From an uncultured delta proteobacterium (GTDB taxonomy: Bacteria; Myxococcota_A; Polyangia; Polyangiales; Polyangiaceae): a stretch of DNA of 64,000 bases. The number at the start of each line of letters is the position of its first letter. The first letter of the stretch is position 1. Location: positions 544,001 to 608,000 of the forward strand of contig CAVQUB010000005.1 in NCBI GenBank assembly GCA_963716725.1, read 5' to 3'. Positions 26,333 through 42,306 of the stretch are shown piece after piece. Below the pieces are notes generated by a model. That model was not told where the DNA came from and searched no databases. It saw only the letters and a list, made by a program, of their open reading frames with translations. Made by a program: the position numbers and the translations under genes.

Positions 26333-27089
26333 GCAGCTGTCGCCCTACGCGCCGACCTTCGTCTCCGTGACCTATGGCGCGGGTGGCAGCACGCGGCGGC
26401 TGACGGTGGAGCTCACCCTGCGCATCGAGCGCGAGACCGGCATCGAGTGCATGGCTCACCTGACCTGCGTGGGCGCCACCCAGGCCGATCTGCACGGCGT
26501 GCTCGGGCAGCTCCGGGACGGCGGCGTGCAGAACGTGCTGGCTCTGCGCGGCGATCCGCCCCAAGGCGAGACCGGCTTCGTGGTCACCGACGGTGGCTTC
26601 TCCCACGCCTCCGAGCTGATCGAGTTCATCCGGAGCCAGTACGATTTCTGCCTCGCCGGGGCGTGTTACCCCGAGAAGCACCCCGAGGCCTCGAGTGCCG
26701 AGGCCGACCTCGCGAACCTGAAGAAGAAAGTCGATGCCGGCGCCGAGTTCTTGGTGAGCCAGCTCTTCTTCGACGCCAAGGACTACTTCGACTTCGTCGG
26801 GCGGGCCCGCGCCATCGGCATCCAGGTGCCCATCTTTGCGGGCATCATGCCCGTCACCAACGTCAATCAGGTCAAGCGCTTCACGGCCATGTGCGGCGCG
26901 CACATGCCCGGCGATCTGATGGCTCGCCTCGAAGCGGTCCACGGCGACGCACGGGAAGTCCGCCGCGTGGGGGTCGACCACGCCATCGGTCAGTGCCGCG
27001 CGCTGCTCGACGGCGGCGCCCCCGGGATCCATTTCTATACGCTGAACCGATCGACGGCGACGGTGGAGATCCTGGAAGCCCTGCGCTGA
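26229..27089 (+). CDS. metF: 5,10-methylenetetrahydrofolate reductase
   Basis: SFEFFPPK, VSVTYGAGGS, AHLTC, LALRGDPP, YPEKHP, SQLFFD, HFYTLNR. Confidence 0.97.
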   Translation: MKIIEKLAAKKPSFSFEFFPPKDEEGKQRLFETVAQLSPYAPTFVSVTYGAGGSTRRLTVELTLRIERETGIECMAHLTCVGATQADLHGVLGQLRDGGVQNVLALRGDPPQGETGFVVTDGGFSHASELIEFIRSQYDFCLAGACYPEKHPEASSAEADLANLKKKVDAGAEFLVSQLFFDAKDYFDFVGRARAIGIQVPIFAGIMPVTNVNQVKRFTAMCGAHMPGDLMARLEAVHGDAREVRRVGVDHAIGQCRALLDGGAPGIHFYTLNRSTATVEILEALR

Positions 27090-27290
27090 AGTTGGCGGGA
27101 CGCTGCGAGCCCGCCCAGCCCGCCCAGCCCGCCCAATTCGCCGGTGCCGACAGGCGGCCAGGAGCCTCGCGATCACGGCGCTGGTGATCGCTGGAGAAGT
27201 GTCGCCTGGAGCCGACAGCGCAGCTGCTTTCGTCGGCTCTTGCCTACAGGCGTGGACGAGGAGAGGCGCGAGAACCTCGCGAACCTGCTG

Positions 27291-27306
27291 CGGCACGCCT
27301 GTTGCT
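27291..27306 (+). promoter_or_regulatory. sigma-54 -24/-12 promoter for the TraB-like/adhesin operon
   Basis: CGGCACGCCTGTTGCT (GG-N10-GC), ~50 bp upstream of ATG 27357. Confidence 0.7.
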
Positions 27307-27356
27307 GAGCCTGCTCGAAGCGGGCGAGGTGGGCCCCACGACCACGGTACATCCCC

Positions 27357-29090
27357 ATGCGACGAACTCTCCTCACTGCTCTGTCTTCGCTTTGCTTCCT
27401 TTCCGCCGCCACGGCGTCGGCGCAGTCGAGCGGTTTCTCCCTCGATCGCTACGAACCTTCGGAGCGTGGCAGCGACTGGTTCGCAAACGAATCGCTGGAT
27501 CTGCGCGGACACCTGCGCCCGGCCTTCGGTGTCGTGGGCGACTACGCGTACAAGCCACTGGTCCTCTACGATGCCAGCGGCGACGAGCAAGCGGCCATCG
27601 TCGAGCATCAGCTGTTCGTGCACATCGGCGGCGCCCTCGTGCTCTTCGACCGCCTGCGCCTCGGGGCCAACTTGCCGCTACTCGCCTTCAGCAAGGGCGA
27701 GTCGCTGAAGGTCGCGAATTCGTCGTTCGAGACCAAGGACGGCACCACTATCGGTGACCCGCGCCTGAGCGCCGATCTGCGCCTGCTCGGCGACTATCGA
27801 GGCCCCTTCTCGCTGGCGCTCGGCATTCAGGGGTTCATTCCGGTGGGCAGCCAAGACTCCTTCGCGGGCGACGGCAAGCTGCGCCTGCGGCCGCGTCTGA
27901 TGGCGGCGGGTGACATTGGTGCCCTGGCCTACGCCGGACAGCTCGCTTTCAACTACCGCGCACGTGGCGAGGACATCGGTGGTGACCCCTTCGGCAGCGA
28001 GGTCACGTTCAGCGCCGCCGTCGGCGTTCGCGCGCTGGACGACAAACTGATCGTCGGCCCCGAGGTGTTTGGCTCCACGGTGGTCAGCGACTCCGGCGAC
28101 GGCGCGTTGAAGAAGCGCACGACGCCGCTCGAGGTCATCCTCGGCGCCAAGTACCGCGTGACGCCCGAGTGGCGCGTCGGTGCCGGTGTCGGTCCGGGCC
28201 TGACCCGCGGCGTGGGAGCTCCCGCTGTGCGCGGTCTGCTCAGCATCGAGTGGTTTCCCGAGGCCCAGAAGCTCGCGGCCAAGCCCGGCGACCGCGACGG
28301 TGACGGCGTGCTCGACCGCGATGACGCTTGCCCCGATCAGGCGGGCATCCGTACCGACGATCCTCGCACCAACGGCTGTCCGGCGCCGCCCTCGGACCGC
28401 GATGCGGACGGCATCTTGGACGAGCAGGACGCCTGCCCCGACCTGCCCGGCGTGGCCAGCGCCGAACCCGCCAAGAACGGTTGTCCGGCGCCGAAGGACA
28501 GCGACGGCGACGGCATCATCGACGAGCAAGACGCTTGTCCGACGGTACCGGGAGTGGCGAACGCCGATGCTGCGAAGCACGGCTGCCCGCCGCCCAAGGA
28601 CACGGACGGCGACGGCATCCTCGATCCCGAGGACGCCTGCCCGACCGAGGCCGGACCGGCCGACCCGAACCCTGCGAAGCACGGCTGCCCCAAGGCGCAG
28701 ATCTCCGGCGGCCAGATCAAGATCATCGAGCAGGTGCAGTTTGCCACGGCGAGCGCCAGGATCCTGCCCGCCAGCGACTCGGTGCTCCAGGCGGTCCTGA
28801 AGATCATGCAGGACCACCCGGAGATCACCCGGATTGGCGTCGAGGGTCACACCGACAACCGCGGCGCCAAGGGCTACAACAAGAACCTGAGCAAGCAGCG
28901 CGCGGCCAGCGTGGCCAAGTGGCTCGTCGATCACGGCATCGACAAGCAGCGGCTCGAATCTGCCGGCTTTGGCCAAGACAAGCCCATCGACAGCAACGAC
29001 ACCGAAGCCGGACGCCAGAACAACCGCCGCGTCGAGTTCCACCTCAAGGAACAGACGAAATCAGGCTCGACCGAGATCAAGAGCAAGTGA
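27357..29090 (+). CDS. TraB-like outer-membrane protein: beta-barrel + thrombospondin type 3 repeats + OmpA peptidoglycan-binding domain
   Basis: Signal peptide; four DxDGDG..D..DACP repeats; EGHTDNRG..YN..LS..RA, GFG, NRRVEF. Confidence 0.88.
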   Translation: MRRTLLTALSSLCFLSAATASAQSSGFSLDRYEPSERGSDWFANESLDLRGHLRPAFGVVGDYAYKPLVLYDASGDEQAAIVEHQLFVHIGGALVLFDRLRLGANLPLLAFSKGESLKVANSSFETKDGTTIGDPRLSADLRLLGDYRGPFSLALGIQGFIPVGSQDSFAGDGKLRLRPRLMAAGDIGALAYAGQLAFNYRARGEDIGGDPFGSEVTFSAAVGVRALDDKLIVGPEVFGSTVVSDSGDGALKKRTTPLEVILGAKYRVTPEWRVGAGVGPGLTRGVGAPAVRGLLSIEWFPEAQKLAAKPGDRDGDGVLDRDDACPDQAGIRTDDPRTNGCPAPPSDRDADGILDEQDACPDLPGVASAEPAKNGCPAPKDSDGDGIIDEQDACPTVPGVANADAAKHGCPPPKDTDGDGILDPEDACPTEAGPADPNPAKHGCPKAQISGGQIKIIEQVQFATASARILPASDSVLQAVLKIMQDHPEITRIGVEGHTDNRGAKGYNKNLSKQRAASVAKWLVDHGIDKQRLESAGFGQDKPIDSNDTEAGRQNNRRVEFHLKEQTKSGSTEIKSK

Positions 29091-29103
29091 CGGAGATTGA
29101 ATC

Positions 29104-32100
29104 ATGAGACAGCTTTCGATTCTCAGCGGGTTGGTGGGTCTGGGCATTCTGGCTGCGGCCAGCGCTGCCAACGCGGTGCCAAAGCTGCGGGCGCAGGTCG
29201 ACCAAAAGGGTGATTTCTTGTTGATCGGCAACACGCTCGGTCACGACTGCCGCAGCGGCTTGCCCGCGCCGATCGTGGGCACCGTCGGCAACTGCGGGAG
29301 CAACACCAACGACTCGTCACCGGACGTGTTCTGGCGTGCCGACGACCCGGCCGCCGGTCAGGCCAGCGCCAACCAAGCCGTCACGCTGGCCCAGGCTCGC
29401 TCCACGGCCGTACTCACGGTCCCCGCGGGGGCCACGGTCACCAAGGCCTGGCTCTACTGGGGTGCGCGCCGCACCGGCAGCTCGGCGGACACCAGCGTGA
29501 CCGTTGAGCGTCAGGGCGGTTTCAGCCAGTCGGTGAGCTCGCTGGAGACCTACACCAGCACCGCGGGCGGCGGCGAGGTGTACTACCAGTCGGTCGCGGA
29601 CGTGACGACGCTCGTGCAAGCCAACGGTTCGGGTGGCTACCGCATCGCAGGCGTCGACTCGGTCAATCTGCCTGGCCTAAACCAGAACGTGGCCTTCACC
29701 GGCTGGTACATGGTCGTGTTCTATCAGCTGGCCAGCGAACCGCCTCGGAACCTGGCGCTCTTCGACGGCTTGGATTTGGTGGACGGTGCGACCAGCCAGT
29801 CAGCGACGCTCTCGGGCTTCTTGGTGCCGGCGGCGGGCTTCGACGCCAAGCTCGGCGTGATCACCTACGAAGGCGATCCAGACGTGACGGGGGACTCGCT
29901 GCGCTTTGGCAAGACGCCGCTTGGCAACGCCGACCGGCTCACGGACGCAGTCAATCCCATCGACAACTTCTTCAACAGCTCGCGCTCGCGCCTCGGTGCT
30001 CCGGTCTCGGTGGCGGGCGATCTGCCGCGGCTGACCGGCGGCCAGGGCAGCATGTCGAGCTTCGACCTCGACGTGGTCAACATCACCAATCGGGTGACGG
30101 CGGGCCAGACTGCGGCCGACATCCAGGCGACCAGCACCGGCGACGTCTACCTGCTCGGCGCGTTCATCACCTCGATCTCGACCTTCAAGCCGGATTTCAG
30201 CACTTCTGGCAAGACGGTGACGGATCTGAACGGTGGCTCCGCGCTGCCCGGTGACGTGTTCGAGTACACGATCACGGTCACGAATACCGGCAACGACACC
30301 TCGGTGGGCACGCAGCTGACAGACGTGATCCCGACTGGCGTCACCTACGTTCCGGGCTCGACTCAGATCGTGAGCGGACCCAACGCGGGTGCCAAGACCG
30401 ACACCGCAGGCGACGACCAAGCCCAGTTCACCACCGGAACCAAGACCCTGACCGTTCGCCTTGGAACCGGCGCGAACGCCACCACCGGCGGCAGCGTGGC
30501 GCCGGGTGCGAGCAGCGTCATCAAGTTCCGGGTCACGCTGGACGCCACGGCCAGCGGCAACATCGAGAACCAGGCCAACATCTCGGCCTCCGGTCAGCAA
30601 GGCGCGCCGCAAACGACGACACCGACCGACGGCAACAACGCAACGCCGGGAGCCCAGTCGACGCCCATCGACACCGACGCCACCGACACCGACAAAGACG
30701 GAGTCAGCGACTTCGACGAGACCGTCGCGGGAACCGATCCCAATGACGCAGACAGCGACGACGACGGCGTGATCGATGGCGACGAGCCGGACTGGAACAA
30801 GGATTCGGACGGCGACGGACTGATCAACGCCCTCGATCCCGACAGCGACGACGACGGCCTGTATGACGGTACCGAGTTGGGGCTCGACTGCGCCGCGACC
30901 GGCACCGACCCGTTGAAGGGTCACTGCATCGCGGACGCCGACAAGGGCGCCACCAAGACCGACCCGCTGCTCTGGGATACCGACGGCGGCGGCGCCAGCG
31001 ACGGCAGCGAGGGCGCCAACCTGAACGGCGCGAAGGACTCCGGCGAGGGCGATCCGACCCTCGGCAATGGGGCCGACGACGCCAGCGTCGTCGACACCGA
31101 CAAGGACGGCCTGTCGGACGCGCTGGAGAAGTTCCTTGGCTCTGGCGTCAACGACGCCGACAGCGACGACGACGGCTTGCTCGACGGTGACGAGCACAAC
31201 CCCGCGGACGACACCGATGGCGATGGTCTCCGGAACGTGATCGACGTCGACAGTGACGACGATGGCCTCTACGACGGGACCGAGAACGGAGCAGGCTGCG
31301 ACGATCCGGCCACCGACAAGACCGCCAAGCACTGCGTCGCCGACGGCGACAAGGGCGCCACCGTCACCTCCAGCCTGATGAAGGACACCGATCGCGGCGG
31401 CGTCAGCGACGGCAGCGAGGACATCAACCTCAACGGCGTCATCGATGCCGGCGAGTCCAACCCCACGCTCGGTCACGGCGCCGACGACGGCACAGGCAAC
31501 AAAGACTCCGACAAGGACGGCCTCTCGGACGGCCTGGAAGCGACACTGGGCTCCGATCCCAACGACGCTGACAGTGACGACGACGGCGTGCTCGACGGCG
31601 ACGAGCTGAACCCCGCGGATGACACCGACGGCGATGGCCTGAAGAACATCGTCGATCCGGACAGCGACGGCGACGGCCTGTTCGACGGGACCGAGCTTGG
31701 TAAGGACTGCGGCAACGCTGCGACGAACGCAGCTGCGGGCAAGTGCATTGCCGATGGCGACAGCGGCGCCACCACCACGAGCCCCCTCATCTCCGACACC
31801 GACACGGGCGGTGTGAGGGACGGCGACGAGGACACCAACAAGAACGGCGTCGTCGACGCGGGCGAACGCGACCCGAACGATCCAAGCGATGACAACACCG
31901 GAACTGGCGGCACGGGCGGTCAAGCCGGCGCTGGCGGCGCGGGCGCGACGGCCGGAAGCGGTGGCGGCGCGGGCACGGGCGCGACCGCCGGCAGCGGCGG
32001 CGTAGGCGGCGGCGGTGGCAGCGCAGCCCAGGGTGGCAATCCGACCTCCGACCCCACCGGCACGCTCGAAGGCGGCGGCTGCAAGTGCTCGGTGCCCGGC

Positions 32101-32181
32101 TCGAGCTCCAACACGCCAGGTGCGCTGGTGCTCGCCGGCCTCGCGCTCGCGGCCTTCGGCGGCAGGCGTCGTCGGCGCTAG
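29104..32181 (+). CDS. Large surface adhesin-like protein: N-terminal globular domain, DUF11, Asp-rich Ca-binding repeats, Gly linker, MYXO-CTERM
   Basis: KTVTDLNGG...PGD..EYTITVTNTG (DUF11); three modules of DxDxDGxxD repeats; GGGCKCSV + TM + RRRRR. Confidence 0.85.
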   Translation: MRQLSILSGLVGLGILAAASAANAVPKLRAQVDQKGDFLLIGNTLGHDCRSGLPAPIVGTVGNCGSNTNDSSPDVFWRADDPAAGQASANQAVTLAQARSTAVLTVPAGATVTKAWLYWGARRTGSSADTSVTVERQGGFSQSVSSLETYTSTAGGGEVYYQSVADVTTLVQANGSGGYRIAGVDSVNLPGLNQNVAFTGWYMVVFYQLASEPPRNLALFDGLDLVDGATSQSATLSGFLVPAAGFDAKLGVITYEGDPDVTGDSLRFGKTPLGNADRLTDAVNPIDNFFNSSRSRLGAPVSVAGDLPRLTGGQGSMSSFDLDVVNITNRVTAGQTAADIQATSTGDVYLLGAFITSISTFKPDFSTSGKTVTDLNGGSALPGDVFEYTITVTNTGNDTSVGTQLTDVIPTGVTYVPGSTQIVSGPNAGAKTDTAGDDQAQFTTGTKTLTVRLGTGANATTGGSVAPGASSVIKFRVTLDATASGNIENQANISASGQQGAPQTTTPTDGNNATPGAQSTPIDTDATDTDKDGVSDFDETVAGTDPNDADSDDDGVIDGDEPDWNKDSDGDGLINALDPDSDDDGLYDGTELGLDCAATGTDPLKGHCIADADKGATKTDPLLWDTDGGGASDGSEGANLNGAKDSGEGDPTLGNGADDASVVDTDKDGLSDALEKFLGSGVNDADSDDDGLLDGDEHNPADDTDGDGLRNVIDVDSDDDGLYDGTENGAGCDDPATDKTAKHCVADGDKGATVTSSLMKDTDRGGVSDGSEDINLNGVIDAGESNPTLGHGADDGTGNKDSDKDGLSDGLEATLGSDPNDADSDDDGVLDGDELNPADDTDGDGLKNIVDPDSDGDGLFDGTELGKDCGNAATNAAAGKCIADGDSGATTTSPLISDTDTGGVRDGDEDTNKNGVVDAGERDPNDPSDDNTGTGGTGGQAGAGGAGATAGSGGGAGTGATAGSGGVGGGGGSAAQGGNPTSDPTGTLEGGGCKCSVPGSSSNTPGALVLAGLALAAFGGRRRRR

Positions 32182-32377
32182 CTCTGCGCGCAGCCGCTGG
32201 CGGCTTTTGGCCCTCGACGTCCCGGCGGCGTCGGGGGCCGAGTCGCTCGCCGCCTGTAGGCTGCAAACGGCAGCCGTTGCCAACAGCCCGCAAGAGCGAA
32301 GCGGGAAGGAGGCGAGTTTGCCGGCGCTGCCAGTTTGGGCCCGGGTGGCACGCAACTTGAAGTGCTCACCGGCACTA

Positions 32378-32393
32378 CGCAGAATGCGTGCCA
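32378..32393 (-). promoter_or_regulatory. sigma-54 -24/-12 motif downstream of the activator gene
   Basis: Minus strand TGGCACGCATTCTGCG. Confidence 0.5.
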
Positions 32394-32510
32394 AGGGAGG
32401 TGGCGTGCTTGCGCCGGATCAGCCCACCCAAGCGTCGCATCGAGCCTGCACTTGTGGGCCGTTGACGACAACTTCGCGTCCCCGCGAGCACGAACTTCGA
32501 GCGAAGCGTC

Positions 32511-32526
32511 TGGCACGCGCGCTGCA
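32511..32526 (+). promoter_or_regulatory. sigma-54 -24/-12 motif with no large ORF downstream
   Basis: TGGCACGCGCGCTGCA. Confidence 0.5.
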
Positions 32527-32627
32527 AGGCACGGGCGACATCCAATGGAGCAACCGGATCGCCAACTCGCTCAGAAGTCCCGAATCGGCCAGGAGCAAGC
32601 CTCACCGCGGAAATGAACTTCCGGGCT

Positions 32628-33977
32628 TCAGTCGGTCCCGTCCGGGGGCAGCGAGGAGCGCTGGTCCCGGAAGCCATGTCGTTGGAGCAGCTTGATCAGG
32701 TAGCTGCGATCCATCCGGGCCTTGCGCGCAGCTTCGCTCACATTCCCGTTCGACGCGGCCAGCAAGTGCTCCAGATACTGATGTTCGAAGCTGTTGAGTA
32801 CCGCGTTGCGCGCGTCCTTGTAGGGCAGGTCGAGGGGCGCTGCGACCTCGCTCGGGGCAGGAGCGACCGAGTCGTGGCGAAACAGATCCGGCGCCTCGCC
32901 CATGGCGACGGTGGCCTCCACCCAGTTGCGCAGCTCGCGTACATTTCCCGGCCAGCGATAGGTCCGCAGCGCCTCGAAAACGTCGGGTTTCACGATCTCC
33001 GACCGGGGCCCGTCGTGGCCGCACTCCTTCAAGAAATGGTCGACCAGCAAGGACAAGTCATCGGGCCGCTCGCGCAGCGGGGGGATGCGCACCTCGACCA
33101 CGCCCAAGCGGTAGTACAGGTCCAGGCGGAAGGTCCCGGCGTTGACCTCGGCGCGCAGATCTCGGTTCGTCGCGCTCACGATCCGCACGTCGACGCTGAT
33201 GTCGGCTCTTCCGCCGACGCGACGAAAACGCCGGCGCTCGAGCGCGCCGAGCAGTTGTGGTTGGAGCTCGGGCGGCAGCTCGCCGATCTCGTCCAGAAAC
33301 AGCGTGCCTCCGTCGGCTCTTTCGAAGGCTCCGACGTGGGTGCGCTCCGCTCCGGTGAAGGCACCCCGGTCGTGACCGAAGAGCTCGCTCGCGACCACGC
33401 CGGGGGCGAGCGCTCCGCAGTCCACGACGACCAGCGGCTTGTTTGCCCGAGGGCTCTGCTCGTGCAGCGCGCGGGCGACGAGCTCCTTACCGGTGCCCGA
33501 CTCACCGACGAGCAGCACCGGGACGGTGGTCTTGGCGACGCGGTCGACCTGGGCCATCAACCGGCGCATGGTGGGGGTGGCGCCGAGCAGATTGCACAAG
33601 CGATCGCTGCCGTGCATCTCCACCGTAGTGCCACCGCCGTCGGCCACCCGGATCGAGGTGCGACCGAGCTGAAGCGTCGTGCCGGGGCTGACGATGCCAC
33701 GCAGCAGGCGGATACCCCCGGCCTCCGTGCCGTTGGTGCTCTCGAGATCCGTCACGATGATGCCGCGATCGTCCCGCGCGAGCTCCAGGTGGAAGCGCGA
33801 AACCGTCGGATCCGTCAGCATCAGCACGTTGCCGTTGGCTGTCCCGATGCTCATCAGCTCGCTGTCGGCTTCCGCGCGCACGCCACTGTCCGGACCCGAG
33901 ATGACCTCCACGGCCAGCGTGCGCACGGGGATGCGAGTTCCAGCACTCGAAAGGGGGGACGTTGCGATGGACGGCAC
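32628..33977 (-). CDS. FHA-domain sigma-54-dependent enhancer-binding protein
   Basis: FHA (IGT...DPTVSRFH...DLESTNGT), GESGTGKE, GAFTGA, FLDEIGEL, WPGNVREL, Fis HTH. Confidence 0.95.
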   Translation of the reverse strand: MPSIATSPLSSAGTRIPVRTLAVEVISGPDSGVRAEADSELMSIGTANGNVLMLTDPTVSRFHLELARDDRGIIVTDLESTNGTEAGGIRLLRGIVSPGTTLQLGRTSIRVADGGGTTVEMHGSDRLCNLLGATPTMRRLMAQVDRVAKTTVPVLLVGESGTGKELVARALHEQSPRANKPLVVVDCGALAPGVVASELFGHDRGAFTGAERTHVGAFERADGGTLFLDEIGELPPELQPQLLGALERRRFRRVGGRADISVDVRIVSATNRDLRAEVNAGTFRLDLYYRLGVVEVRIPPLRERPDDLSLLVDHFLKECGHDGPRSEIVKPDVFEALRTYRWPGNVRELRNWVEATVAMGEAPDLFRHDSVAPAPSEVAAPLDLPYKDARNAVLNSFEHQYLEHLLAASNGNVSEAARKARMDRSYLIKLLQRHGFRDQRSSLPPDGTD

Positions 33978-34045
33978 GGCGCGGTTATACCACGGGCCAG
34001 GATCACCGATGGTGGGCTAGCCCGGCGAGATCGAGAGCAATTGCA

Positions 34046-35731
34046 ATGATGCCATTGGGTCTACGTTCCGGTCTCGCGTTGCTCGTTTCGACGTCGGTAG
34101 CCGTCGCGGCGCCGAGCATTCCGTTGGACCGCTTCGAGCCAGCTCCGACAGGCGACGCGTTGATGGCGGTCCCCGATGCGCGGGCCGACGGCCGACTCGA
34201 ATTCGGCCTCGGGGCTCGCTTCGTCTACGCGCGCGATCCCCTCGTGATGCGCGTGGTCGATGGCAGCGGGAACGAAACCTCGACCACCATCGTGGACCAC
34301 CAACTGATCGTTCATGCCTTGGTCGCGGCCACGCTCGGACAGCGCTTGGTCCTCGACCTGGACCTGCCCGGACTCCTCAGCCAAGGCGGCAATGACGGCC
34401 GGTTCGGTCAACTGGATCTCAGCGGACCGAGCGGAGCCGACTTGGGGGATCTGCGCTTGGGAGCACGCATCGCCTTGGTCGAGCAGCGCGACAGCTTCCC
34501 CGGTCTCGCGCTCGCGACTCGCGTCTGGCTCCCGACCAGCTCCGGCGCTTTTGCCGGCTCTGACACCGCCCGCCTGAGCTCGCAGGTCGTGGTTGGTCAC
34601 GACTCGTCGACCTGGCTCTGGCGCGCGACTGCCGGCGCATTGGCCGGCGCTTCCCAGAGCGGATACTCTGGCCTGTTCGGCAGCGAGGTCTTCGCCCAGC
34701 TCGGGCTCGGCTATCGGCTGGGGCCAACTCAGCTGGGCGCCGAGCTCTCGGGCGCGACGGGCGTCGACGTCCCGTGGTTGCGGCGAAACTCGACGCACGT
34801 CGAGGCACTGGCCTCGGTGAGGCAGCGCTTCGGCCCGCTCTCGGCCTTCGTGGCGGCGGGTCCCGGGCTCACTCCCGGCGCCGGCACGCCTGCGTATCGC
34901 GTGTTGATTGGTGCCGACCTGAGCTTTGAGTTCGCCCCGGAGGGTTCGGGCGCTGGTGCTGCTGGTCCTGGTGGTGGCCAGCCGACTCCCGTCGCTCCCG
35001 CATCCGGATCGCTGCCTGGCGCCTCCGGCGGCGCGGCCGATCGGGACTCCGACGGCGTGGTCGACGCGCTCGACGCGTGCCCGGATGCACCCGGAGATCC
35101 CGCGGCTCTGCGCCCCGGCTGTCCGCCCGACCGCGACAGCGACGGCGTCGCCGATCTCGACGACCATTGCCCCGATGTCCCCGGCGTGAAGAGCGCCGAT
35201 CCCGAGCGCCACGGCTGCCCGGCGGATCGCGACGGCGACGGGATCTACGACGGCGAGGACGCCTGTCCCAACGAGCAGGGCGCGCGCACGGCCGATACCA
35301 AGACCAGCGGTTGCCCCGAGTCGGTGCGGGTGGTCGGCAGGCAGATTGTCATCAGCGGTCAGGTCAACTTTGCGACGGCCAGCGACGTGCTCGCGGCCGA
35401 AAGCTCGAAGGTGCTCGAGCAAGTGGCGGGCGTGCTGCGCGATCACCCGGACATCGCGCGTCTCGCCGTTGACGGGCATACCGACGACGTCGGTCGTGAT
35501 CCGACGAACCTGGATCTGTCCCGGCGCCGAGCCATCGCGGTCGTTCGTTGGCTCGTCGATCACGGAATCGACGAGCGCCGCCTGGAAGCCCGCGGCTTCG
35601 GAGCACGGCAGCCGCTGATTCGCGAAAAGACCGCCGAGGCTCGCGCCAAGAACCGACGGGTCGAGTTCCAGATTCTGAAGCGCAGCGACAAGGGCGAGCG
35701 AGGGTGGAAAGACGGGCCGATCGATGAGTGA
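34046..35731 (+). CDS. Second TraB-like OmpA/TSP3 outer-membrane protein
   Basis: LDRFEPAP start similar to LDRYEPS of 27357; three TSP3 repeats; DGHTDD, LS..RA, NRRVEF. Confidence 0.87.
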   Translation: MMPLGLRSGLALLVSTSVAVAAPSIPLDRFEPAPTGDALMAVPDARADGRLEFGLGARFVYARDPLVMRVVDGSGNETSTTIVDHQLIVHALVAATLGQRLVLDLDLPGLLSQGGNDGRFGQLDLSGPSGADLGDLRLGARIALVEQRDSFPGLALATRVWLPTSSGAFAGSDTARLSSQVVVGHDSSTWLWRATAGALAGASQSGYSGLFGSEVFAQLGLGYRLGPTQLGAELSGATGVDVPWLRRNSTHVEALASVRQRFGPLSAFVAAGPGLTPGAGTPAYRVLIGADLSFEFAPEGSGAGAAGPGGGQPTPVAPASGSLPGASGGAADRDSDGVVDALDACPDAPGDPAALRPGCPPDRDSDGVADLDDHCPDVPGVKSADPERHGCPADRDGDGIYDGEDACPNEQGARTADTKTSGCPESVRVVGRQIVISGQVNFATASDVLAAESSKVLEQVAGVLRDHPDIARLAVDGHTDDVGRDPTNLDLSRRRAIAVVRWLVDHGIDERRLEARGFGARQPLIREKTAEARAKNRRVEFQILKRSDKGERGWKDGPIDE

Positions 35732-37490
35732 AGTCCGGCTGTCGATCCGTGTTCGGGCCGCGATACTTCTGGTCGCGATCGCGGCGGTGCCAGCCGCGGC
35801 GGTCGCATGGCGTCTCACCGGCATCAACCAGAACGCCGTGGAGCTCAGCGAAGCCAATTTGCAGGCGGCTGTCGTTGGGGAGGTCGCGAACGCAGTCTTG
35901 GGTCACGTCCGGTCGGCCGAAGAGGACACCCGAGCGGTTGCCCTGGCCATTTCCCTCGCCGCAGCGAAGCCGGATGCAGGCGCGAAGGGCGTCGACGCGA
36001 TGCTGAGTGGGCTGCTTGCCAGTCGGCGCAACCTCGCGGCGTTTCGCTTCGAAGTGCCGTCGGCGAACGTTGATACCGTCGTCAAGAAGCCAGGCGTTGC
36101 CGCCTCGGAGGTGCCGCGATCCACCCCGGAGATGCGACGGCGAGCCAGTGAGAGTGGGGTGAGTTTCGAGTTGCTGAGCCCGGGCGTCGGGGCGGTCGTC
36201 GTGCCAGTGCCCAAGGTCGATCCCGCGGGTGCCGACGGCTTCGTGACGACCGCTGCCGACTTGGCCGGGCTCTCGGGAACTCTCGAACAAGCCGCCGGTG
36301 CTCGCTTCCGCGCAGGCGGCGTTTCGATCGTCGTTGCGGACGGGACGAAGCGCGCCGTTGCCGCCCGGGGGGCCGACCTACGTGCCGGCTCCGACGTCGC
36401 GGAGTTGCCGGTCTTCGCCTTGATCCCCGCTGGTGCATCCTGGATGACCCGAACCGCGGTCGTGAGTACATTTTCGCAGGGCGGAGAGCCGCAGGTCGGG
36501 GCGGTAGAGACGGTCGAAGATCTTGGTTGGGCGGTCGGACTTTGGCGGCCGGAGCGCATCGCCTACTCCACGCTCTACGACATGCGGCGCACTAGCGCGT
36601 GGGTCGTCGGGGGCACGCTGTTCATCGCCCTCGTCGTCGGGCTATTTGCCGGTAGCGCCATCACCCGACCCGTGATGCGGCTCGCCAGCCAGGCGAGGCT
36701 GATCGGGCAGCGCCGCTGGCGCGAGGTCGCGCTCGACAGCAATCGACGTGACGAGCTCGGCACGCTCTCCCGAGCTATCGGGCAAATGGCACAGGATCTC
36801 GAGAGTGGCGAGACCGAGATCGAACGTCAGGCCAAGCTGCGCGGCGACTTGAGCCGCTTTTTGAGCAAAGACTTGGTCGATGCCATCGTGCGCGGCGAGC
36901 ACTCGCTGGCGCTCGGGGGACAACGCCGCGAGGTGTCCGTCCTGTTCGCGGACGTCGTCGCTTTCACGCCTCTGGCCGAGAGCCGTCCCGCCGAAGAGGT
37001 CGTCACCATCCTCAACGAGCTGTTCTCGATCTTGAGCGAGATCGTGTTCCGACACGAGGGCACGGTCGACAAGTTCATCGGAGATTGCATCATGGCGGTC
37101 TGGGGCGCTCCGCAGAGCCAGCCCGACCACGCGCGTCTCGCGCTGGCGGCTGCCGAGGACATGCAGCGCTTCTTGGAGAGTGCGAACCAGATGTGGTCGG
37201 AGAAATACGGTACGGAGCTGCGCCTCGCGATCGGCATCAACAGCGGCGAAGCCATTGTCGGGAACATCGGATCGGACAAGCGCATGGAGTACACCGTCAT
37301 CGGTGACGTCGTGAACGTGGCGGCTCGGCTCGAAGCAGTCGCCAAGCCCGACCAGGTGCTGGTGGCGGAGCGAACCCACGAGCTCGCGGGAGATGGTTTC
37401 GAGCTGCGTTCGCTCGGCTCTCAACAACTGACGGGCCGCAAGACTGCGACCGCTGTGTACGAGCTGCTTTTGGATGTGGGCGATGCGTGA
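35724..37490 (+). CDS. Membrane class III adenylate cyclase (2 TM, periplasmic sensor, HAMP)
   Basis: VLFADVVAFT, DKFIGDCIMAVWGAP, EYTVIGDVVNVAARLE; HAMP RRDELGTL. Confidence 0.92.
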   Translation: MSEVRLSIRVRAAILLVAIAAVPAAAVAWRLTGINQNAVELSEANLQAAVVGEVANAVLGHVRSAEEDTRAVALAISLAAAKPDAGAKGVDAMLSGLLASRRNLAAFRFEVPSANVDTVVKKPGVAASEVPRSTPEMRRRASESGVSFELLSPGVGAVVVPVPKVDPAGADGFVTTAADLAGLSGTLEQAAGARFRAGGVSIVVADGTKRAVAARGADLRAGSDVAELPVFALIPAGASWMTRTAVVSTFSQGGEPQVGAVETVEDLGWAVGLWRPERIAYSTLYDMRRTSAWVVGGTLFIALVVGLFAGSAITRPVMRLASQARLIGQRRWREVALDSNRRDELGTLSRAIGQMAQDLESGETEIERQAKLRGDLSRFLSKDLVDAIVRGEHSLALGGQRREVSVLFADVVAFTPLAESRPAEEVVTILNELFSILSEIVFRHEGTVDKFIGDCIMAVWGAPQSQPDHARLALAAAEDMQRFLESANQMWSEKYGTELRLAIGINSGEAIVGNIGSDKRMEYTVIGDVVNVAARLEAVAKPDQVLVAERTHELAGDGFELRSLGSQQLTGRKTATAVYELLLDVGDA

Positions 37491-39780
37491 ACGAATGCTG
37501 TTGAGGAGATTCGTGCCGCTCGTGGCGGTCGTGACCACGATTCGGCCGGTGTTCGCCGCGGACGACGTCACCCCCGGCTATCCGGAGCGCGTCTTGCAAT
37601 GGACGGTCAAGAACAAGGAGAGCTGCGACGACGTTGCTTCGGCGCTCTATGGCTCGGCCAAGCATCGTGCGCTGCTCGAGCGCTACAACTCGGTGAAGTG
37701 TGGCACCAAGACGCCCCTCCCGGACGGCATGACCCTGGTGGTGCCGGCCAAGGTGACGAATCTTCCTTCGGCCAGGCTGCGCTCCCTGCAGCCTGACGTG
37801 CGCGAGCGACCCTCTGGCGGCGCCTGGCAAGAAGCGTCACCTGGTATGCCGCTCTACAAGAACCACAGCGTCAACACGATGGAGAAGGCGCGGGCCGACA
37901 TCCTGTTCGTCGATAGAACGCGCGTCGTGCTCGCCGAGCACACGCTCGTGATCATCTACGGCACGGCGAAGCAGACGGCCGTGGCGAAGGCGCCGCCCAC
38001 CATCGAACTCGAGAGCGGCGAAGTTCAGGCGGGGCTCGCAGCGCTCCGAGGCAAGCCCGTCCAAGTCGGAGTGCAGGGCGGCGAAGTCACGGCCGAGTCG
38101 CGAGACACCGCAGTCCGCGCGAAGCAAAAGCGCGCGACCGTGTCGGTGTTCGACGGCAAGGCCAGCGTCTCGTCGGCTGGTAAGAAGGTGCAGGTCCCTC
38201 AGAACTTCGGTAGCTCCTTCCAGCAAGCGAAGGCGCCGACGCCGCCGCGACCGCTGCCGCCGGGACCCAAGTGGCTGCCGTCCAGCGTTTCGGGCGTGGT
38301 GTTGTTTCCGCACGGCAAGGGCGTCGTGAAAGCGGGTTGGGAGACGGTGCCGAAAGCGGCGGTCTACCGCGTCGAGATCGCCAAAGACTCCGACTTCACC
38401 GACTTGATCGCGCGCGAAGAAGTGCCGAGCGACGTGCGTAGTTTCCGGGGCGAGAAACTGCCGCCGGGCGCCTACTTCATGCGCGTGCGCGCGGTCGACA
38501 CCGAGGACTTCCTGGGCATCGCGTCCGACGTGCGAGCCTTCGCCATCGTCGCAGCGCAGCCGAAAGCGGGTGCGATCGACGGGGGTACCATCGAGGTGAG
38601 CCCCTACGGCGAGCTCCAGCTCGCCGCCTTCGCTGGCCTCGAACTCGCGGTGGACGAGGGGCCCTTTGGCGCGGTCCCGTCCAAGATCGATTTTCTGACG
38701 CTCTCTCCCCGTGCGCTGTCGCTTCAGGTTGCGGGCGCCAATGCGGCGACGCGTTACGAGGTGAAGTACCTCATCCCCGAGCTGAAGATTTCGCTCGAGC
38801 AGCAAGGTCCTCGCTCGGCGGCGGTGGTCGTCCGCTTCGCAGAGGTGGAGGGCATCGACGTAGCCACCCGGGTTCAGCCTTCACTCCGAGTGCGCCGCGG
38901 CAATCAAACGCGGCGCTTGCCGCTGTCGGCCGCGGCTGACGCCACCACCTGGCGAGCGAACGTCACGGGCTTGCAGCCGGGTCCGGTCTTGGTCGAGGTC
39001 GTGGATCGGCGCGGGCGACTTCTCGCGTCGACCGAGGCGACGATCGGCGAGCCGGAGCGGGCTCCCGGTGCACCGCCCGCTCAGCGGCGCTTCATCGGGA
39101 TCAGTGCGCCGCTGGTGCAGCCGTCTCCGCTGACCAACGTCGTTTGGTGGAGTCCCACTCCCGACAGCTCGGGTGCGATCAGCGGGACCGCCTACAGCGA
39201 TCATGGAAAGCCCGGCGAGCAGCTGGCGATCCGAGCGTCGGGGGCTGTCGGACCGATTGGAGTGGATGGGCTGGTCACGACGCGTGAGCTCGGCGGCTCC
39301 GCCGCCGACGGCAGCGCGTGGTTCACGCTGCGCTGGCGCTCGGCACGCCTGGGCGAGATCGAGCTGGGACCGGCGCTTCAGCTCGCGCTGCCAACCACGG
39401 CCCACAGCCCCGCCTCGCGGGTGGGTGGCGGCATCGCCATCGGCAGCATTGGCGACAAGCTCGGCTGGCTCATAGACGTCGGCGGTCGGGCGCCGCTCGA
39501 GGCCAGCGCCGAGCGACAGCCGGCGCCGGATGGGCAAGGTTTCGTGCTGGCCGGCGCCACCTACGACGTCGTGCCCTGGCTGAGGGGCTACGCGCTGCTC
39601 GACGCTCACGGGCTGCTCGACCCTCGCTCCGACGACCTCATCGGTCGCGGTGGCCTGAGCCTTGGTGTGGAAGCTGGCGGTCGCCTTTACGGCGGCCTGT
39701 CGCTTCGTGGCTCGGCGTGGGACGATGCTGGCGGCTACTTCATGGGGCAGCTCGCCGTGGGAGTCCGCGACCGGCCATGA
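37483..39780 (+). CDS. LysM + FecR + FN3-like protein with probable C-terminal beta-barrel
   Basis: WTVKNKESCDDVASALYG (LysM-like); VNT...RADILFVDRTRVVLAEHT, VSVFDGKASV (FecR); YRVEIAKDSDF, GAYFMRVRAVD (FN3). Confidence 0.75.
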   Translation: MRERMLLRRFVPLVAVVTTIRPVFAADDVTPGYPERVLQWTVKNKESCDDVASALYGSAKHRALLERYNSVKCGTKTPLPDGMTLVVPAKVTNLPSARLRSLQPDVRERPSGGAWQEASPGMPLYKNHSVNTMEKARADILFVDRTRVVLAEHTLVIIYGTAKQTAVAKAPPTIELESGEVQAGLAALRGKPVQVGVQGGEVTAESRDTAVRAKQKRATVSVFDGKASVSSAGKKVQVPQNFGSSFQQAKAPTPPRPLPPGPKWLPSSVSGVVLFPHGKGVVKAGWETVPKAAVYRVEIAKDSDFTDLIAREEVPSDVRSFRGEKLPPGAYFMRVRAVDTEDFLGIASDVRAFAIVAAQPKAGAIDGGTIEVSPYGELQLAAFAGLELAVDEGPFGAVPSKIDFLTLSPRALSLQVAGANAATRYEVKYLIPELKISLEQQGPRSAAVVVRFAEVEGIDVATRVQPSLRVRRGNQTRRLPLSAAADATTWRANVTGLQPGPVLVEVVDRRGRLLASTEATIGEPERAPGAPPAQRRFIGISAPLVQPSPLTNVVWWSPTPDSSGAISGTAYSDHGKPGEQLAIRASGAVGPIGVDGLVTTRELGGSAADGSAWFTLRWRSARLGEIELGPALQLALPTTAHSPASRVGGGIAIGSIGDKLGWLIDVGGRAPLEASAERQPAPDGQGFVLAGATYDVVPWLRGYALLDAHGLLDPRSDDLIGRGGLSLGVEAGGRLYGGLSLRGSAWDDAGGYFMGQLAVGVRDRP

Positions 39781-41261
39781 GCGGAGCAGACTCGGACGAC
39801 TCGCAGGGCAGGCCTCCCGCCGCAGAAGCGGAAACCGAGCTTGGCAGCTTCGAGTCCGCGGCGGCACGACCGGTCGCACTGCCGTCGGCCGTCACACAGC
39901 TCTCCAACGCGGCTTCGATCCCCGATCAGACGCCGGCCGCGGGGTTCGTGCTCGCAGGCAAGTACCGCCTGACGGAGATGTTGGGGCAGGGCGGGATGGG
40001 AACGGTGTACGCGGCCGAGCAAATTGAGCTCGCCGTGCCCGTCGCGATCAAGCTGATGCACCCCCACGTCGCCGCCCACGCCGAGTACGTCGAGCGCTTC
40101 CGGCGCGAGGCACGGGCGGCGATGCTACTGAATCACCCCAAAGTCGTGCGCGTCATCGACTTCGGGCAGCACGACAAGACCTTCTTCATCGTCATGGAGC
40201 TGATTGAGGGTGAGCCACTCGATCATTGGATCTTCGCGCATCCGGGACCGCCGCCCTTCGCAGACGTCGTTTCCATCATGTGCGATGTGCTCGAAGCGCT
40301 GGAGGCCGCCCACGCGCTCGGCATCGTGCACCGGGATCTGAAGCCAGAAAATATCCTACTGACCCACGACAGCCAGGGTCATCGCTACGCCAAAGTCGTC
40401 GACTTCGGACTGGCGCACGTGGACGCCCCCGACGATGGAAGACCGACGCTGACGCGGGCCGACGCGGTGGCCGGCACTCCCGCCTACATGAGCCCGGAGC
40501 AGAGCCGTTCGCTGCGTGTCAGTCCAGCGGCGGATCTCTACTCGATGGGCTGCATCCTCACCGAGCTCCTGCAGATGTCTCCGCCCTTCGACGGCGCGCC
40601 CATGGAGATCGTTTCGCAGCACTTGTTCATGGCGCCTCCTGCCCTGAAGCGCCCCGATGGCGCCGAGCCGGTGCCGGCGCTGCTCGAGAAGCTACGGCTC
40701 GAGCTCTTGGCCAAGCACCCTCACCAACGTCCGGCAGACGCGGCCGCCGTTCGGGAGCGCTTGCTCGAGGCAATGGACCCAGCGGCCCACGCCAAGCGCC
40801 TTCCGAGTCGCAAGGGCGAGCTCTCCGGCGGCGGACGGCAGGACCGCATCCCCGACTGGAACGAAGCCGAGGCCGCCGGTCCTTCGACCCCGGAGCCCCG
40901 CGAGAGCACCGCCCTCTTGGTCGCCGCCTCGAACTCCAGCCTGCACGACGTCGCGGTCGCCACCGGGCTCGCCGCCCACGGGATCCGGCCGGCGCGAGCA
41001 GAATCAATGGTCGATGCCCTGGCGGCGTCTCCAGACGTCATCGTGCTCGACGCAGTGGGTGACATTGATGCGGCCGTCGCCGCCCTCGCGGCCGGATCCG
41101 CCGGTGTTCCGGTGGTCATCCTGGTCCGGCAGCTCGACCCAGGCTCCATGCGACGCCTGATCGAGGCCGGCGCCGCGGACGTGATCGCTCAGCCCGTGGC
41201 GCCGGACGTGCTGTCGAAGAAGCTGGCCCGCTTGCTGCGGCGCCGCGCTCACAAGAGCTGA
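39777..41261 (+). CDS. Hanks-type Ser/Thr kinase with C-terminal pseudo-receiver domain
   Basis: LGQGGMGTVY, VAIK, HRDLKPEN, DFG, GTPAYMSPE; tail PDVIVLD...PVVIL...AGAADVIAQP; ATGA overlap with the previous gene. Confidence 0.92.
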   Translation: MSGADSDDSQGRPPAAEAETELGSFESAAARPVALPSAVTQLSNAASIPDQTPAAGFVLAGKYRLTEMLGQGGMGTVYAAEQIELAVPVAIKLMHPHVAAHAEYVERFRREARAAMLLNHPKVVRVIDFGQHDKTFFIVMELIEGEPLDHWIFAHPGPPPFADVVSIMCDVLEALEAAHALGIVHRDLKPENILLTHDSQGHRYAKVVDFGLAHVDAPDDGRPTLTRADAVAGTPAYMSPEQSRSLRVSPAADLYSMGCILTELLQMSPPFDGAPMEIVSQHLFMAPPALKRPDGAEPVPALLEKLRLELLAKHPHQRPADAAAVRERLLEAMDPAAHAKRLPSRKGELSGGGRQDRIPDWNEAEAAGPSTPEPRESTALLVAASNSSLHDVAVATGLAAHGIRPARAESMVDALAASPDVIVLDAVGDIDAAVAALAAGSAGVPVVILVRQLDPGSMRRLIEAGAADVIAQPVAPDVLSKKLARLLRRRAHKS

Positions 41262-42127
41262 TACACCAAGCTGACGGCGGTGGACGTGTCGAGCTCCTTC
41301 ACGCCGGGCAGCGGCGCATGGTCGTACTTCAGGCTGAAGGTGGTGCTCAGCGAGAAGTCGCCGCCGATGGCCGAGGTGAGACCGGCGTCCCAGTTCAGGC
41401 GCCAGCGCTCTGTCTCGGGAAGGCCTTGCAGATACTCCAGACCGGTAGTGAATTTGACGTGCTCGTTGAGGGCGTTGTTGTAGCCCGCGAACAGACGACC
41501 GCTGTGCTGCACGTCGGTTTTGTCGACGGGATCGCCACTGGCCTGGGCGGCCGCGACGTTCTCGTCGCGTCGCACGTCGTACTGCAAGTCGTAGCCAATT
41601 TCGGACCAGAGCTGCTGGCTCTTTTGATCGACGAAGTAGTAGGCGACGCCAGGGTCGAGGTTGAGTCGCAAGTCGAGGCCTTGGAAGCGATCACGTCGGG
41701 CCGAGGTCGCCATGAACAGCGCCAGATTACCCGCGATGAAGCGATCGTACCTGACCTTGCCCTGATAGTTCTCGACCGTAGTCTCCATGTCGCCGGCGGG
41801 GTTGGGCGCCGAGCGCGAATAGTTGACGGCTGCGGCAGCGCTCAGCTGGTTCTTCTCACGTCGCACGCGCATGGTGCCGGCGCCGGTTGCCGCCAGCGAG
41901 CGCGAGTTGCCGGTCGTGAGCAGGGCGCCGGCCGAGATCTTTGCCTCCGTCGCGTCCTTCGCTTCGGGGTCGTCCTTGGCGACCGCTTCGAAGCCACTCG
42001 TGGCGACGTCCGTCTTGCCGCTCGTAGCGGCGTCCTGTTTCATCAGCCCCTCAGCTTGAGCAAGCGCTTGTGGAGAGAGAGCGAGCGATGCGCCGAGCGC
42101 GCCGGCAGCGAGGATGAGTTTGTTCAT
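41249..42127 (-). CDS. DUF481 (YdiY-like) outer-membrane beta-barrel
   Basis: TTGNSRS, RYDRF, DRFQGLDLR...GVAYY, DTST.VSLVYQL. Confidence 0.85.
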   Translation of the reverse strand: MNKLILAAGALGASLALSPQALAQAEGLMKQDAATSGKTDVATSGFEAVAKDDPEAKDATEAKISAGALLTTGNSRSLAATGAGTMRVRREKNQLSAAAAVNYSRSAPNPAGDMETTVENYQGKVRYDRFIAGNLALFMATSARRDRFQGLDLRLNLDPGVAYYFVDQKSQQLWSEIGYDLQYDVRRDENVAAAQASGDPVDKTDVQHSGRLFAGYNNALNEHVKFTTGLEYLQGLPETERWRLNWDAGLTSAIGGDFSLSTTFSLKYDHAPLPGVKELDTSTAVSLVYQLL

Positions 42128-42290
42128 GGGGCTTCCGAACGTACGCGAGTCCTAGAGCAATCCCCATGCCGTCCGCGATCCGGCTCTGAATCGGCGGCGC
42201 CAGGACTGGGCTGTTGGCTGGGGGCGCCAGCCTGTCGCATCCAGCCAGCAAGTCCGGCCCGGCCGCGCAGGTCCGCAGCGCTATTGGGCC

Positions 42291-42306
42291 AGGCACGCGG
42301 CTTGCT
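42291..42306 (+). promoter_or_regulatory. sigma-54 -24/-12 motif divergent from the DUF481 gene
   Basis: AGGCACGCGGCTTGCT. Confidence 0.5.

Follow-up and report, generated by a model that had tools for sequence, protein, structure and literature searches.

NsrA of Sinorhizobium meliloti is described, in the available parts of two published accounts, as an outer-membrane barrel protein needed for the perception of a plant signal via the inner-membrane CHASE2 cyclases CyaK and CyaD1/D2 (PMC7529298, PMC13001267), and in Campylobacterota an outer-membrane protein with a FecR domain is clustered with a CHASE2 cyclase, according to the sections at hand of a third account (PMC9239204). TraB of Myxococcus xanthus comprises a signal peptide, an outer-membrane barrel, TSP3 repeats, and an OmpA domain, and its one-to-one partner, a MYXO-CTERM surface protein, is a product of the same operon (PMC3325183, PMC12045341, each as a partial text); the former text, within the same limits, assigns to the TraA-type receptor a PA14-like variable domain, Cys-rich repeats, and MYXO-CTERM (PMC3325183). 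Here, we describe a gene module with likenesses to both kinds of systems in a 64,000-nucleotide (nt) stretch of DNA, referred to as the window, from an uncultured delta proteobacterium of the Polyangiaceae (assembly GCA_963716725.1, contig CAVQUB010000005.1). The module lies at positions 27291 to 41261 of the window and its core consists of four genes, encoding a FecR-domain protein with a predicted C-terminal barrel, a receptor adenylate cyclase, a Hanks-type Ser/Thr kinase, and a TraB-like OmpA barrel protein. Our data indicate that these four genes have been kept together across Myxococcota.

The source assembly comprises 7.9 Mb in 35 contigs and is 84% complete; the analyzed stretch lies on its contig 5, and the GC content of the region is approximately 67-69%. 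Genes were called from open reading frames (ORFs) and their translations, and domains were assigned with Pfam and NCBIfam profile scans. An earlier sequence-only reading had described eight genes here, and all of them are present as described, with small corrections to their coordinates. They are laid out as two plus-strand operons, A and B, with one minus-strand gene, encoding an FHA-sigma54 activator, between them. The four core genes make up operon B, while operon A encodes a second TraB-like protein (TraB-like 1) and a putative adhesin (Table 1).

We found that the FecR protein is single-copy in its own genome and that its homologues occur in at least 77 of 401 genomes of the phylum, which is a lower bound because the search began with a stricter first look, and in at least 66 of the 339 high-quality ones. 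Full-length matches are confined to the same family, and elsewhere only residues approximately 30-370 match. The neighborhood of the FecR gene was compared in a sample of about 80 Myxococcota loci: 14 wide loci (approximately 18 kb) representing the phylum, 41 non-duplicate loci, and 29 short loci (+/-1.5 kb). The 41-locus set was obtained from 44 loci found with a five-sequence alignment of the FecR protein, after removal of L046, L055, and L073, which are identical to L032, L033, and L035, respectively. Its labels are almost only Polyangiaceae, and the remainder are broader Myxococcota or delta-proteobacterial labels; named carriers include Sorangium cellulosum So ce56, other Sorangium strains, Minicystis rosea, Chondromyces apiculatus, and a Byssovorax metagenome-assembled genome, and the alignment identified no named genome of another family, such as M. 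xanthus. The components of each locus were counted by tblastn (at least 80 bits) in flanks of up to approximately 9 kb.

The cyclase was found in all 14 phylum loci and in 38 of the 41 loci, the kinase in 13/14 and 35/41, and the TraB-like barrel in 12/14 and 38/41. Core genes that are missing among the 41 loci are mostly missing from contig-end loci of less than 12 kb (L065, L066, L070, L072, L076, and L083-L085); one full-length locus, L068, has no barrel and only a partial cyclase. Either the kinase or the TraB-like barrel gene directly adjoins the FecR gene in 28 of the 29 short loci, the exception (L021) being a 1.7-kb contig end. The four genes occur in three gene orders. The order of the window is barrel, cyclase, FecR, kinase; in Sorangium and others, cyclase and barrel are divergent from FecR and kinase; and in other families the order is barrel, cyclase, kinase, FecR, or barrel and FecR followed by cyclase and kinase. 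That the four genes were kept together through repeated reshuffling is the strongest evidence here for a joint function, and we consider it very probable that they are functionally coupled. The remaining components are distributed differently, the FHA activator being found in 7/14 phylum loci and 14/41 loci and the adhesin in 3/14 and 7/41. Conserved synteny across Myxococcota, the lack of which would have counted against the sequence-only reading, is therefore borne out for the four-gene core, while the activator and the TraB-like 1/adhesin pair are add-ons, found mainly in Polyangiaceae, and do not belong to the core.

Table 1. Module features and 3' neighboring genes, with positions and strands in the window
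Feature	Positions	Strand	Description
Candidate sigma-54-type promoter motif, CGGCACGCCTGTTGC	27291-27305	+	52 nt 5' of the TraB-like 1 ATG; one mismatch to TGGCAC-N5-TTGC
TraB-like 1	27357-29090	+	Signal peptide, N-terminal outer-membrane barrel, TSP3 calcium-binding repeats, OmpA peptidoglycan-binding domain
Adhesin, 1025 residues	29104-32181	+	Signal peptide, DUF3344, DUF11, Asp-rich TSP3-type repeats, Gly-rich linker, MYXO-CTERM
FHA-sigma54 enhancer-binding protein (activator)	32628-33977	-	N-terminal Thr-Ser-Pro (T6), non-canonical FHA, AAA+ with GAFTGA, HTH_8
TraB-like 2	34046-35731	+	First gene of operon B; signal peptide, barrel, TSP3 repeats, OmpA
Receptor adenylate cyclase	35724-37490	+	Transmembrane helix 1, periplasmic domain of predicted dCache fold (residues ~31-290), transmembrane helix 2, HAMP, class IIIb catalytic domain
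FecR-barrel protein	37474-39780	+	Signal peptide, LysM-like unit, FecR, Pro-rich linker, three Ig/FN3-like domains, predicted 12-stranded barrel
Hanks-type Ser/Thr kinase, cytoplasmic	39777-41261	+	Pfam Pkinase 153.2 bits; C-terminal receiver-like (pseudo-receiver) domain
DUF481 gene	41249-42127	-	
Uma2-family endonuclease-like gene	42439-43290	-	
YkuD L,D-transpeptidase-domain protein, 576 residues	43698-45428	-	

The FecR protein was modeled with 34 homologues (mean predicted local distance difference test score, pLDDT, 87.2). In the model, a beta-alpha-alpha-beta unit at residues 40-91 follows the signal peptide and precedes the beta-rich FecR domain (Pfam FecR, 36.8 bits). We read this unit as LysM-like because of its predicted topology and because homologues carry the motif YTVxxGDTCxxIA. 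An invariant Pro-rich linker, PPRPLPPxPxW, leads to three immunoglobulin (Ig)/FN3-like domains (residues 274-524), which are followed by a loose linker and the barrel (residues 566-765). The LysM-FecR-FN3-barrel build that had been proposed for this protein is thus seen in its FecR domain and, in the model, in its Ig/FN3-like domains and barrel, while a single-domain Pfam scan at E values of up to 5 gave no match to LysM.

Full-length Foldseek lists are dominated by Ig chains for the FecR protein and by catalytic domains for the cyclase, and VIA-align was used for the barrel and the dCache domain. Residues 565-767 of the FecR protein matched KdgM (Z 20.0, root mean square deviation 1.8, 167 residues aligned), FapF (Z 19.7), and NanC (Z 19.6), as well as a COG4313 channel (Z 18.9) and autotransporter barrels (Z 15-17), and all of the structures matching the barrel are 12-stranded outer-membrane barrels. 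Foldseek also returned FapF, with a target-normalized TM-score of 0.61. In addition, residues 172-262 matched the C-terminal cell-surface-signaling domain of PupR, a regulator of the FecR type (Z 10.5). The barrel and the periplasmic domain of the cyclase gave no Pfam match at E values of up to 5, and their folds are taken from the models. Outer-membrane proteins usually end in Phe or Trp, and the C-terminal residue of distant FecR-protein homologues is Phe or Trp. As modeled, the C-terminus of the FecR protein is a 12-stranded outer-membrane barrel. Because the periplasm is where FecR domains and LysM act, we place the N-terminal part in it; this part could instead be surface-exposed, since a C-terminal 12-stranded barrel is also the layout of autotransporters.

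The cyclase model (33 homologues, pLDDT 88.7) starts with a long helix at its N-terminus; two alpha/beta modules come next, and a second membrane helix with HAMP leads to the catalytic domain. Pfam identified Guanylate_cyc (107.7 bits) and HAMP. Residues approximately 31-290 matched more than 15 dCache domains in VIA-align, among them those of Tlp1, PctD, PctA, Tlp3, Mlp24, TlpC, and DctB (Z 12-15), and the catalytic domain matched CyaB of P. aeruginosa (Z 28.6) and CyaC of S. platensis (Z 28.1). In class III cyclases, two Asp residues bind metal, Lys and Thr set the substrate, and Asn and Arg act on the transition state. The corresponding residues D410, D454, K450, T524, N531, and R535 are invariant across the 33 homologues, and in an alignment with the guanylate cyclase Cya2 the Glu and Gly of Cya2 correspond to Lys and Thr here. 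Since the catalytic residues are invariant and include this Lys/Thr pair, the protein resembles an active subclass IIIb adenylate cyclase.

The kinase contains GxGxxG, VAIK, HRDLKPEN, DFG, and SPE and has no membrane segment. Its tail scores 18.3 bits on Response_reg against a cut-off of 30.2, which leaves it outside the receiver family, and by eye it lacks the Asp-Asp pocket and has Gln in place of the conserved Lys. Without the acidic pocket and the Lys, the tail is best regarded as a pseudo-receiver, as had been suggested from the sequence. TraB-like 2, whose true ATG lies downstream of the longest-ORF start, matched OmpA (71.7 bits) and TSP_3; along its whole length, it shares 38% identity with TraB-like 1. 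The junctions within operon B overlap by 8, 17, and 4 nt, with the ATG of the kinase gene overlapping the stop of the FecR gene. Downstream, the DUF481 gene (141.8 bits) is convergent with the kinase gene, and the ends of the two genes share 13 nt; DUF481, which we take to be an outer-membrane barrel family, also has homologues near the module in L042 and L082. The Uma2-family and YkuD-domain genes follow just 3' of the module. An Rfam scan of positions 27000-42300 at E values of up to 1 gave no match. A scan for sigma-70 promoters and terminators gave nothing beyond the shuffled expectation.

NsrA carries a FecR domain, and the analogy to NsrA that had been drawn for this locus holds in architecture, with a FecR domain and an outer-membrane barrel encoded next to a receptor cyclase. 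As in NsrA, the FecR protein of the module is predicted to have a C-terminal outer-membrane barrel and a periplasmic N-terminal part, and its gene lies near that of an inner-membrane class III cyclase in nearly all of the loci counted above. The two systems differ in several respects. No CHASE2 match was found in the cyclase at Pfam E values of up to 5, and its sensor is of the dCache type, followed by HAMP, whereas the partner cyclase of NsrA is a CHASE2 protein in the part of that account available (PMC13001267). The barrel here has approximately 200 residues and 12 predicted strands, whereas the NsrA barrel spans residues 600-1200 in the accessible sections of its description (PMC7529298). 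The partners here are a Hanks-type kinase and a TraB-like OmpA barrel rather than a phosphodiesterase and a tetratricopeptide repeat protein, and the putative output includes a sigma-54 activator. Because the sensor of the cyclase is dCache and not CHASE2, the analogy with NsrA is architectural only, which counts against an NsrA-like relay from the FecR protein to the cyclase. Cyclase residues 31-292 were co-folded with FecR-protein residues 28-370, and two runs, made without controls, gave an ipSAE of 0.00, a result that speaks neither for nor against binding. Judged largely by analogy, such a relay has somewhat less than an even chance of operating here.

The FecR-type periplasmic domain, in a pathway that would start at an outer-membrane barrel, is also reminiscent of FecA/FecR/FecI signaling. 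In contrast to that system, the FecR protein of the module has no cytoplasmic anti-sigma domain or inner-membrane helix and has its own signal peptide and barrel, and the 19 ORFs scanned around the operons gave no match to extracytoplasmic function (ECF) sigma factor or TonB-dependent receptor families. The module is not a FecAIR system. We group it with outer-membrane FecR-barrel proteins signaling to a receptor cyclase, from which it departs in its dCache sensor, its barrel size, and the addition of a kinase and a TraB-like OmpA barrel. A full-text literature search, with subscription journals mostly outside its reach, returned no account of a myxobacterial module of FecR protein, cyclase, kinase, and OmpA protein.

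Operon A encodes the second pair of envelope proteins. TraB-like 1 matched OmpA (78.4 bits), TSP_3 (45.4 bits), and the Phenol_MetA_deg barrel (28.2 bits). The adhesin matched DUF3344 (39.4 bits in Pfam, with its N-terminal part scanned alone), DUF11, and TSP3_bac, and its repeats score 119.9 bits on the NCBIfam CglD model, under the cut-off of 400. Its C-terminus reads GGCKCS...LVLAGLALAAFGGRRRRR, with the invariant Cys, a hydrophobic stretch, and an Arg-rich end, and it belongs to the MYXO-CTERM family (TIGR03901, 29.6 bits against a cut-off of 20, residues 990-1025). Both TraB-like proteins share the build of signal peptide, barrel, TSP3 repeats, and OmpA that is described for TraB in the available part of its account (PMC12045341), yet they score 248.4 (TraB-like 1) and 176.7 bits (TraB-like 2) on the NCBIfam TraB model NF033763, against a cut-off of 700. 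The adhesin differs from TraA, with which it has only MYXO-CTERM in common, in its DUF3344, DUF11, and Asp-rich TSP3_bac repeats; Pfam and NCBIfam scans of the adhesin gave no match to PA14 or TIGR04201. The partner of TraB-like 1 is therefore, as the sequence-only reading had it, a DUF11/Asp-rich protein and not a TraA-like one. Relative to TraA/TraB, the gene order is reversed here, and the pair is multicopy.

In the loci examined, TraB-like 1 is always paired with a MYXO-CTERM adhesin. The pair forms a cassette with two copies in the source genome, three in So ce56, and at least one in So ce26, and in Minicystis an adhesin match abuts a TraB-like match. The second copy in the source genome is approximately 74% identical and lies on contig 8 at positions 72817-77350 (L089, 10818-15349); it has no FHA activator or sensor adjoining it and no sigma-54 motif upstream. 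None of the extra copies in these four genomes has an FHA activator within the fetched flanks.

Several sequence features flank operon A. Three tandem copies of a CCCGCCCAG unit, the third ending in A, occupy positions 27107-27135, between the MTHFR gene and the sigma-54 motif, and this repeat was not seen 5' of the orthologous gene in L031 or L032. A palindrome near 27170, GCGATCAC-N7-GTGATCGC, was considered as a binding site for the activator and rejected, as it was not seen upstream in L031 or L032. Neither an Rfam match nor a convincing small ORF was found in the 446-nt spacer between the convergent adhesin and activator genes; the spacer contains three sigma-54-like motifs with TGGCACGC cores at 32346 (+), 32379 (-), and 32511 (+), all within 180 nt (32346-32525), the first two of which form an inverted repeat, TGGCACGCA...TGCGTGCCA.

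We asked whether operon A is an output of the sensor encoded by operon B. The alternative is that the two are separate units, such that the sensor signals via cyclic AMP (cAMP) and substrates of its own kinase, while the activator and the adhesin pair constitute an independent sigma-54 regulon that is a mere neighbor in some Polyangiaceae. Co-occurrence argues against separate units, since all 10 adhesin-bearing sensor loci also hold the FHA activator (3/3 in the phylum set and 7/7 in the 41-locus set) and none has the adhesin without the activator. So does the persistence of their adjacency through at least four arrangements: that of the window; that of L034; that of L062, L066, and L081, in which the activator gene lies just after the kinase gene and is divergent from the TraB-like 1 gene; and that of L048, L076, and L087, in which the adhesin occurs alone. 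In L048, the adhesin gene lies directly behind the kinase gene, beginning a few tens of bases past its stop. The distribution of the promoter motif points in the same direction. Matches to TGGCAC-N5-TTGC with at most one mismatch number 11 in the whole window, compared to 4.4 expected, so the single motif at 27291 is suggestive only and the comparative data carry the argument. Within 300 nt upstream, such a motif is present for 6 of 7 activator-linked TraB-like 1 genes (window, L031, L032, L062, L066, and L081) and for none of five unlinked copies (L089; L096, L097, and L099 of So ce56; and L098 of Minicystis). The co-occurrence, the persistence through rearrangement, and the distribution of the motif tie operon A to the sensor, and together they give moderate support for the activator driving this promoter.

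A number of observations weigh against this tie. Three of the six motif-positive promoters come from one genus, and if that genus is counted once the comparison becomes 4/5 versus 0/5. The motifs of L062 and L081 have TTGA rather than TTGC at -12. No sigma-54 motif was found within 300 nt of the linked TraB-like 1 gene of L034, 5' of the adhesin gene in L076 or L087, or on the plus strand of the region upstream of operon B. The activator is not beside the module in 27 of the 41 loci and the adhesin is not in 34, including every Sorangium genome, and, as described above, TraB-like/adhesin pairs stand elsewhere in the source genome and in Sorangium, all of which favors separate units. The source genome also encodes many kinases and approximately 47 sigma-54 activators, any of which could serve the promoter at 27291. 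Finally, other regulators stand in the place of the activator in some lineages. An OmpR-type regulator (Response_reg and Trans_reg_C) occupies the activator position in L040 (15587-16288, +) and L041 (3346-4062, -), two genomes of another Myxococcota family, where it and the module's TraB-like gene are transcribed divergently and no histidine kinase was seen beside it among the ORFs scanned; in L042, the neighbor of the module is a receiver-type sigma-54 activator. An OmpR-type regulator in the activator's place, together with loci that keep the kinase and have no activator, indicates that the kinase has a role independent of the activator. The proposal that the activator switches on the adhesin pair gains support from comparison where both occur; in Sorangium loci both are absent beside the module. 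On balance, the FHA-sigma54 activator probably drives the adhesin operon from the promoter at 27291.

How the activator would receive its signal is less clear from its domains. The gene starts 68 nt from the operon B ATG, divergently, and its GTG start and N-terminus, VPSIATSP, are common to the same-genus orthologues L031, L032, and L045-L047. With intact GAFTGA and GESGTGKE motifs and a Sigma54_activat score of 220.9 bits, the protein is a sigma-54 enhancer-binding protein; HTH_8, at 21.5 bits, falls just below its cut-off of 22. GarA and OdhI are FHA switches with an N-terminal phosphorylated Thr, and FHA-type enhancer-binding proteins are present in Myxococcus. Similarly, the activator has a conserved Thr in a short N-terminal tail ahead of its FHA domain and is encoded next to a Hanks-type kinase. 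In 17 of 17 non-duplicate orthologues, the spacing between this Thr and the first strand of the FHA domain is constant, and in 15 of the 17 the Thr is part of a Thr-x-Pro motif; in the window it is T6.

The canonical FHA phosphopeptide site consists of Gly-Arg, Ser-x-x-His, and Asn-Gly. The domain in the activator belongs to the Pfam FHA family (36.6 bits against a cut-off of 20.7) and keeps Ser-Arg-Phe-His and Ser-Thr-Asn-Gly-Thr. Its site departs from the canonical one: in the window and all 19 orthologues, Thr or Ser takes the place of the Arg of Gly-Arg, which, like the fusion to a sigma-54 AAA+ activator, sets it apart from GarA and OdhI. The absence of this Arg favors separate units and makes signaling from the kinase to the FHA domain uncertain. 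The same domain also scores higher on Yop-YscD_cpl (43.3 bits), and the YscD-type family is not known to bind phosphopeptides, which adds to the case against such a step. Among FHA-activator paralogues of the source genome, of which 11 were taken, one gave no match, and 10 were aligned (L101-L110), eight have no Arg and two (L109 and L110) keep Gly-Arg. Since eight of 10 paralogues lack it, non-canonical binding may be common to a large subfamily of FHA activators in myxobacteria. The step from kinase to FHA domain that the sequence-only reading had proposed retains its gene linkage and the conserved N-terminal Thr-x-Pro and loses the phosphothreonine-binding Arg. We put forward only tentatively that the output of the kinase is passed to the activator. 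Taking the evidence of both kinds together, we regard it as unlikely that the sensor and operon A are functionally separate units.

The reading that we prefer is that of a conserved trans-envelope module across Myxococcota with a lineage-specific sigma-54/adhesin output in Polyangiaceae, which we hold to be evenly balanced as a whole. We hypothesize that the TraB-like barrel would sit in the outer membrane, tethered to peptidoglycan via its OmpA domain, and that the FecR-barrel protein would span it with its 12-stranded barrel and extend a periplasmic stalk made of three Ig-like domains, the FecR domain, and the LysM-like unit. The FecR-barrel protein would pass on a cue from the outer membrane or the periplasm to the periplasmic domain of the inner-membrane dCache-HAMP cyclase, in the manner of NsrA, and the module would have cAMP and Ser/Thr phosphorylation as its outputs. 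The FHA-sigma54 activator, encoded divergently, may in Polyangiaceae read the kinase output, likely at the Thr-x-Pro containing T6, similar to GarA and OdhI, and would then fire the sigma-54 promoter at 27291 and turn on the TraAB-like pair of TraB-like barrel and MYXO-CTERM adhesin. In its widest form, which we offer as a possibility that is rather less than even, the core is a four-part machine that turns one outer-membrane event into cAMP and phosphorylation, into which lineages have plugged an FHA-sigma54, OmpR-type, or NtrC-type regulator and which in Polyangiaceae gates a TraAB-like adhesin system, such that surface perception controls cell-cell or cell-substrate adhesion.

The same core could instead monitor the integrity of the envelope. 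Its barrel proteins would tie the outer membrane to peptidoglycan, and altered spacing or wall damage would shift the activity of the cyclase and kinase, in a stress response rather than a response to an external cue. This fits with the OmpA C-terminal and LysM-like peptidoglycan-binding modules on two outer-membrane proteins, with an Ig-like stalk of fixed length, and with the YkuD L,D-transpeptidase gene nearby. It fits less well with a dCache domain and a barrel resembling the specific porins KdgM and NanC, both of which suggest the handling of ligands, and with the genes that would be induced, which encode an adhesin and not repair functions, and we consider it quite improbable. Least probable is contact sensing, as originally put forward for this locus, in which cell-cell or surface contact would induce a kin- or contact-adhesin pair analogous to TraAB: the TraB-like build of both proteins (PMC12045341, as far as the available part describes it), a MYXO-CTERM surface protein as the induced partner, and two peptidoglycan-binding modules (OmpA and LysM-like) that could transmit mechanical load speak for it, but the cyclase sensor has the dCache fold typical of small-ligand sensors, both TraB-like proteins stay well under the TraB cut-off, the adhesin carries neither a PA14-like variable domain nor Cys-rich repeats but DUF3344 and DUF11, and the adhesin output is missing in most lineages that have the sensor.

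A conserved trans-envelope module of this kind would have several consequences. It is carried by cultivated strains of Sorangium, Minicystis, and Chondromyces, which makes it experimentally tractable. Myxobacteria have many orphan FHA-type sigma-54 activators, and for one of them the module would supply an upstream input and a target promoter. It also points to a family of TraAB-like barrel/adhesin pairs outside kin recognition. Few routes from the outer membrane to the cytoplasm are known, namely FecA/FecR cell-surface signaling, Rcs, and NsrA-CyaK, and the module would add another, one that is widespread in a socially behaving phylum and in which cyclic-nucleotide and Ser/Thr-kinase outputs are coupled in one operon.

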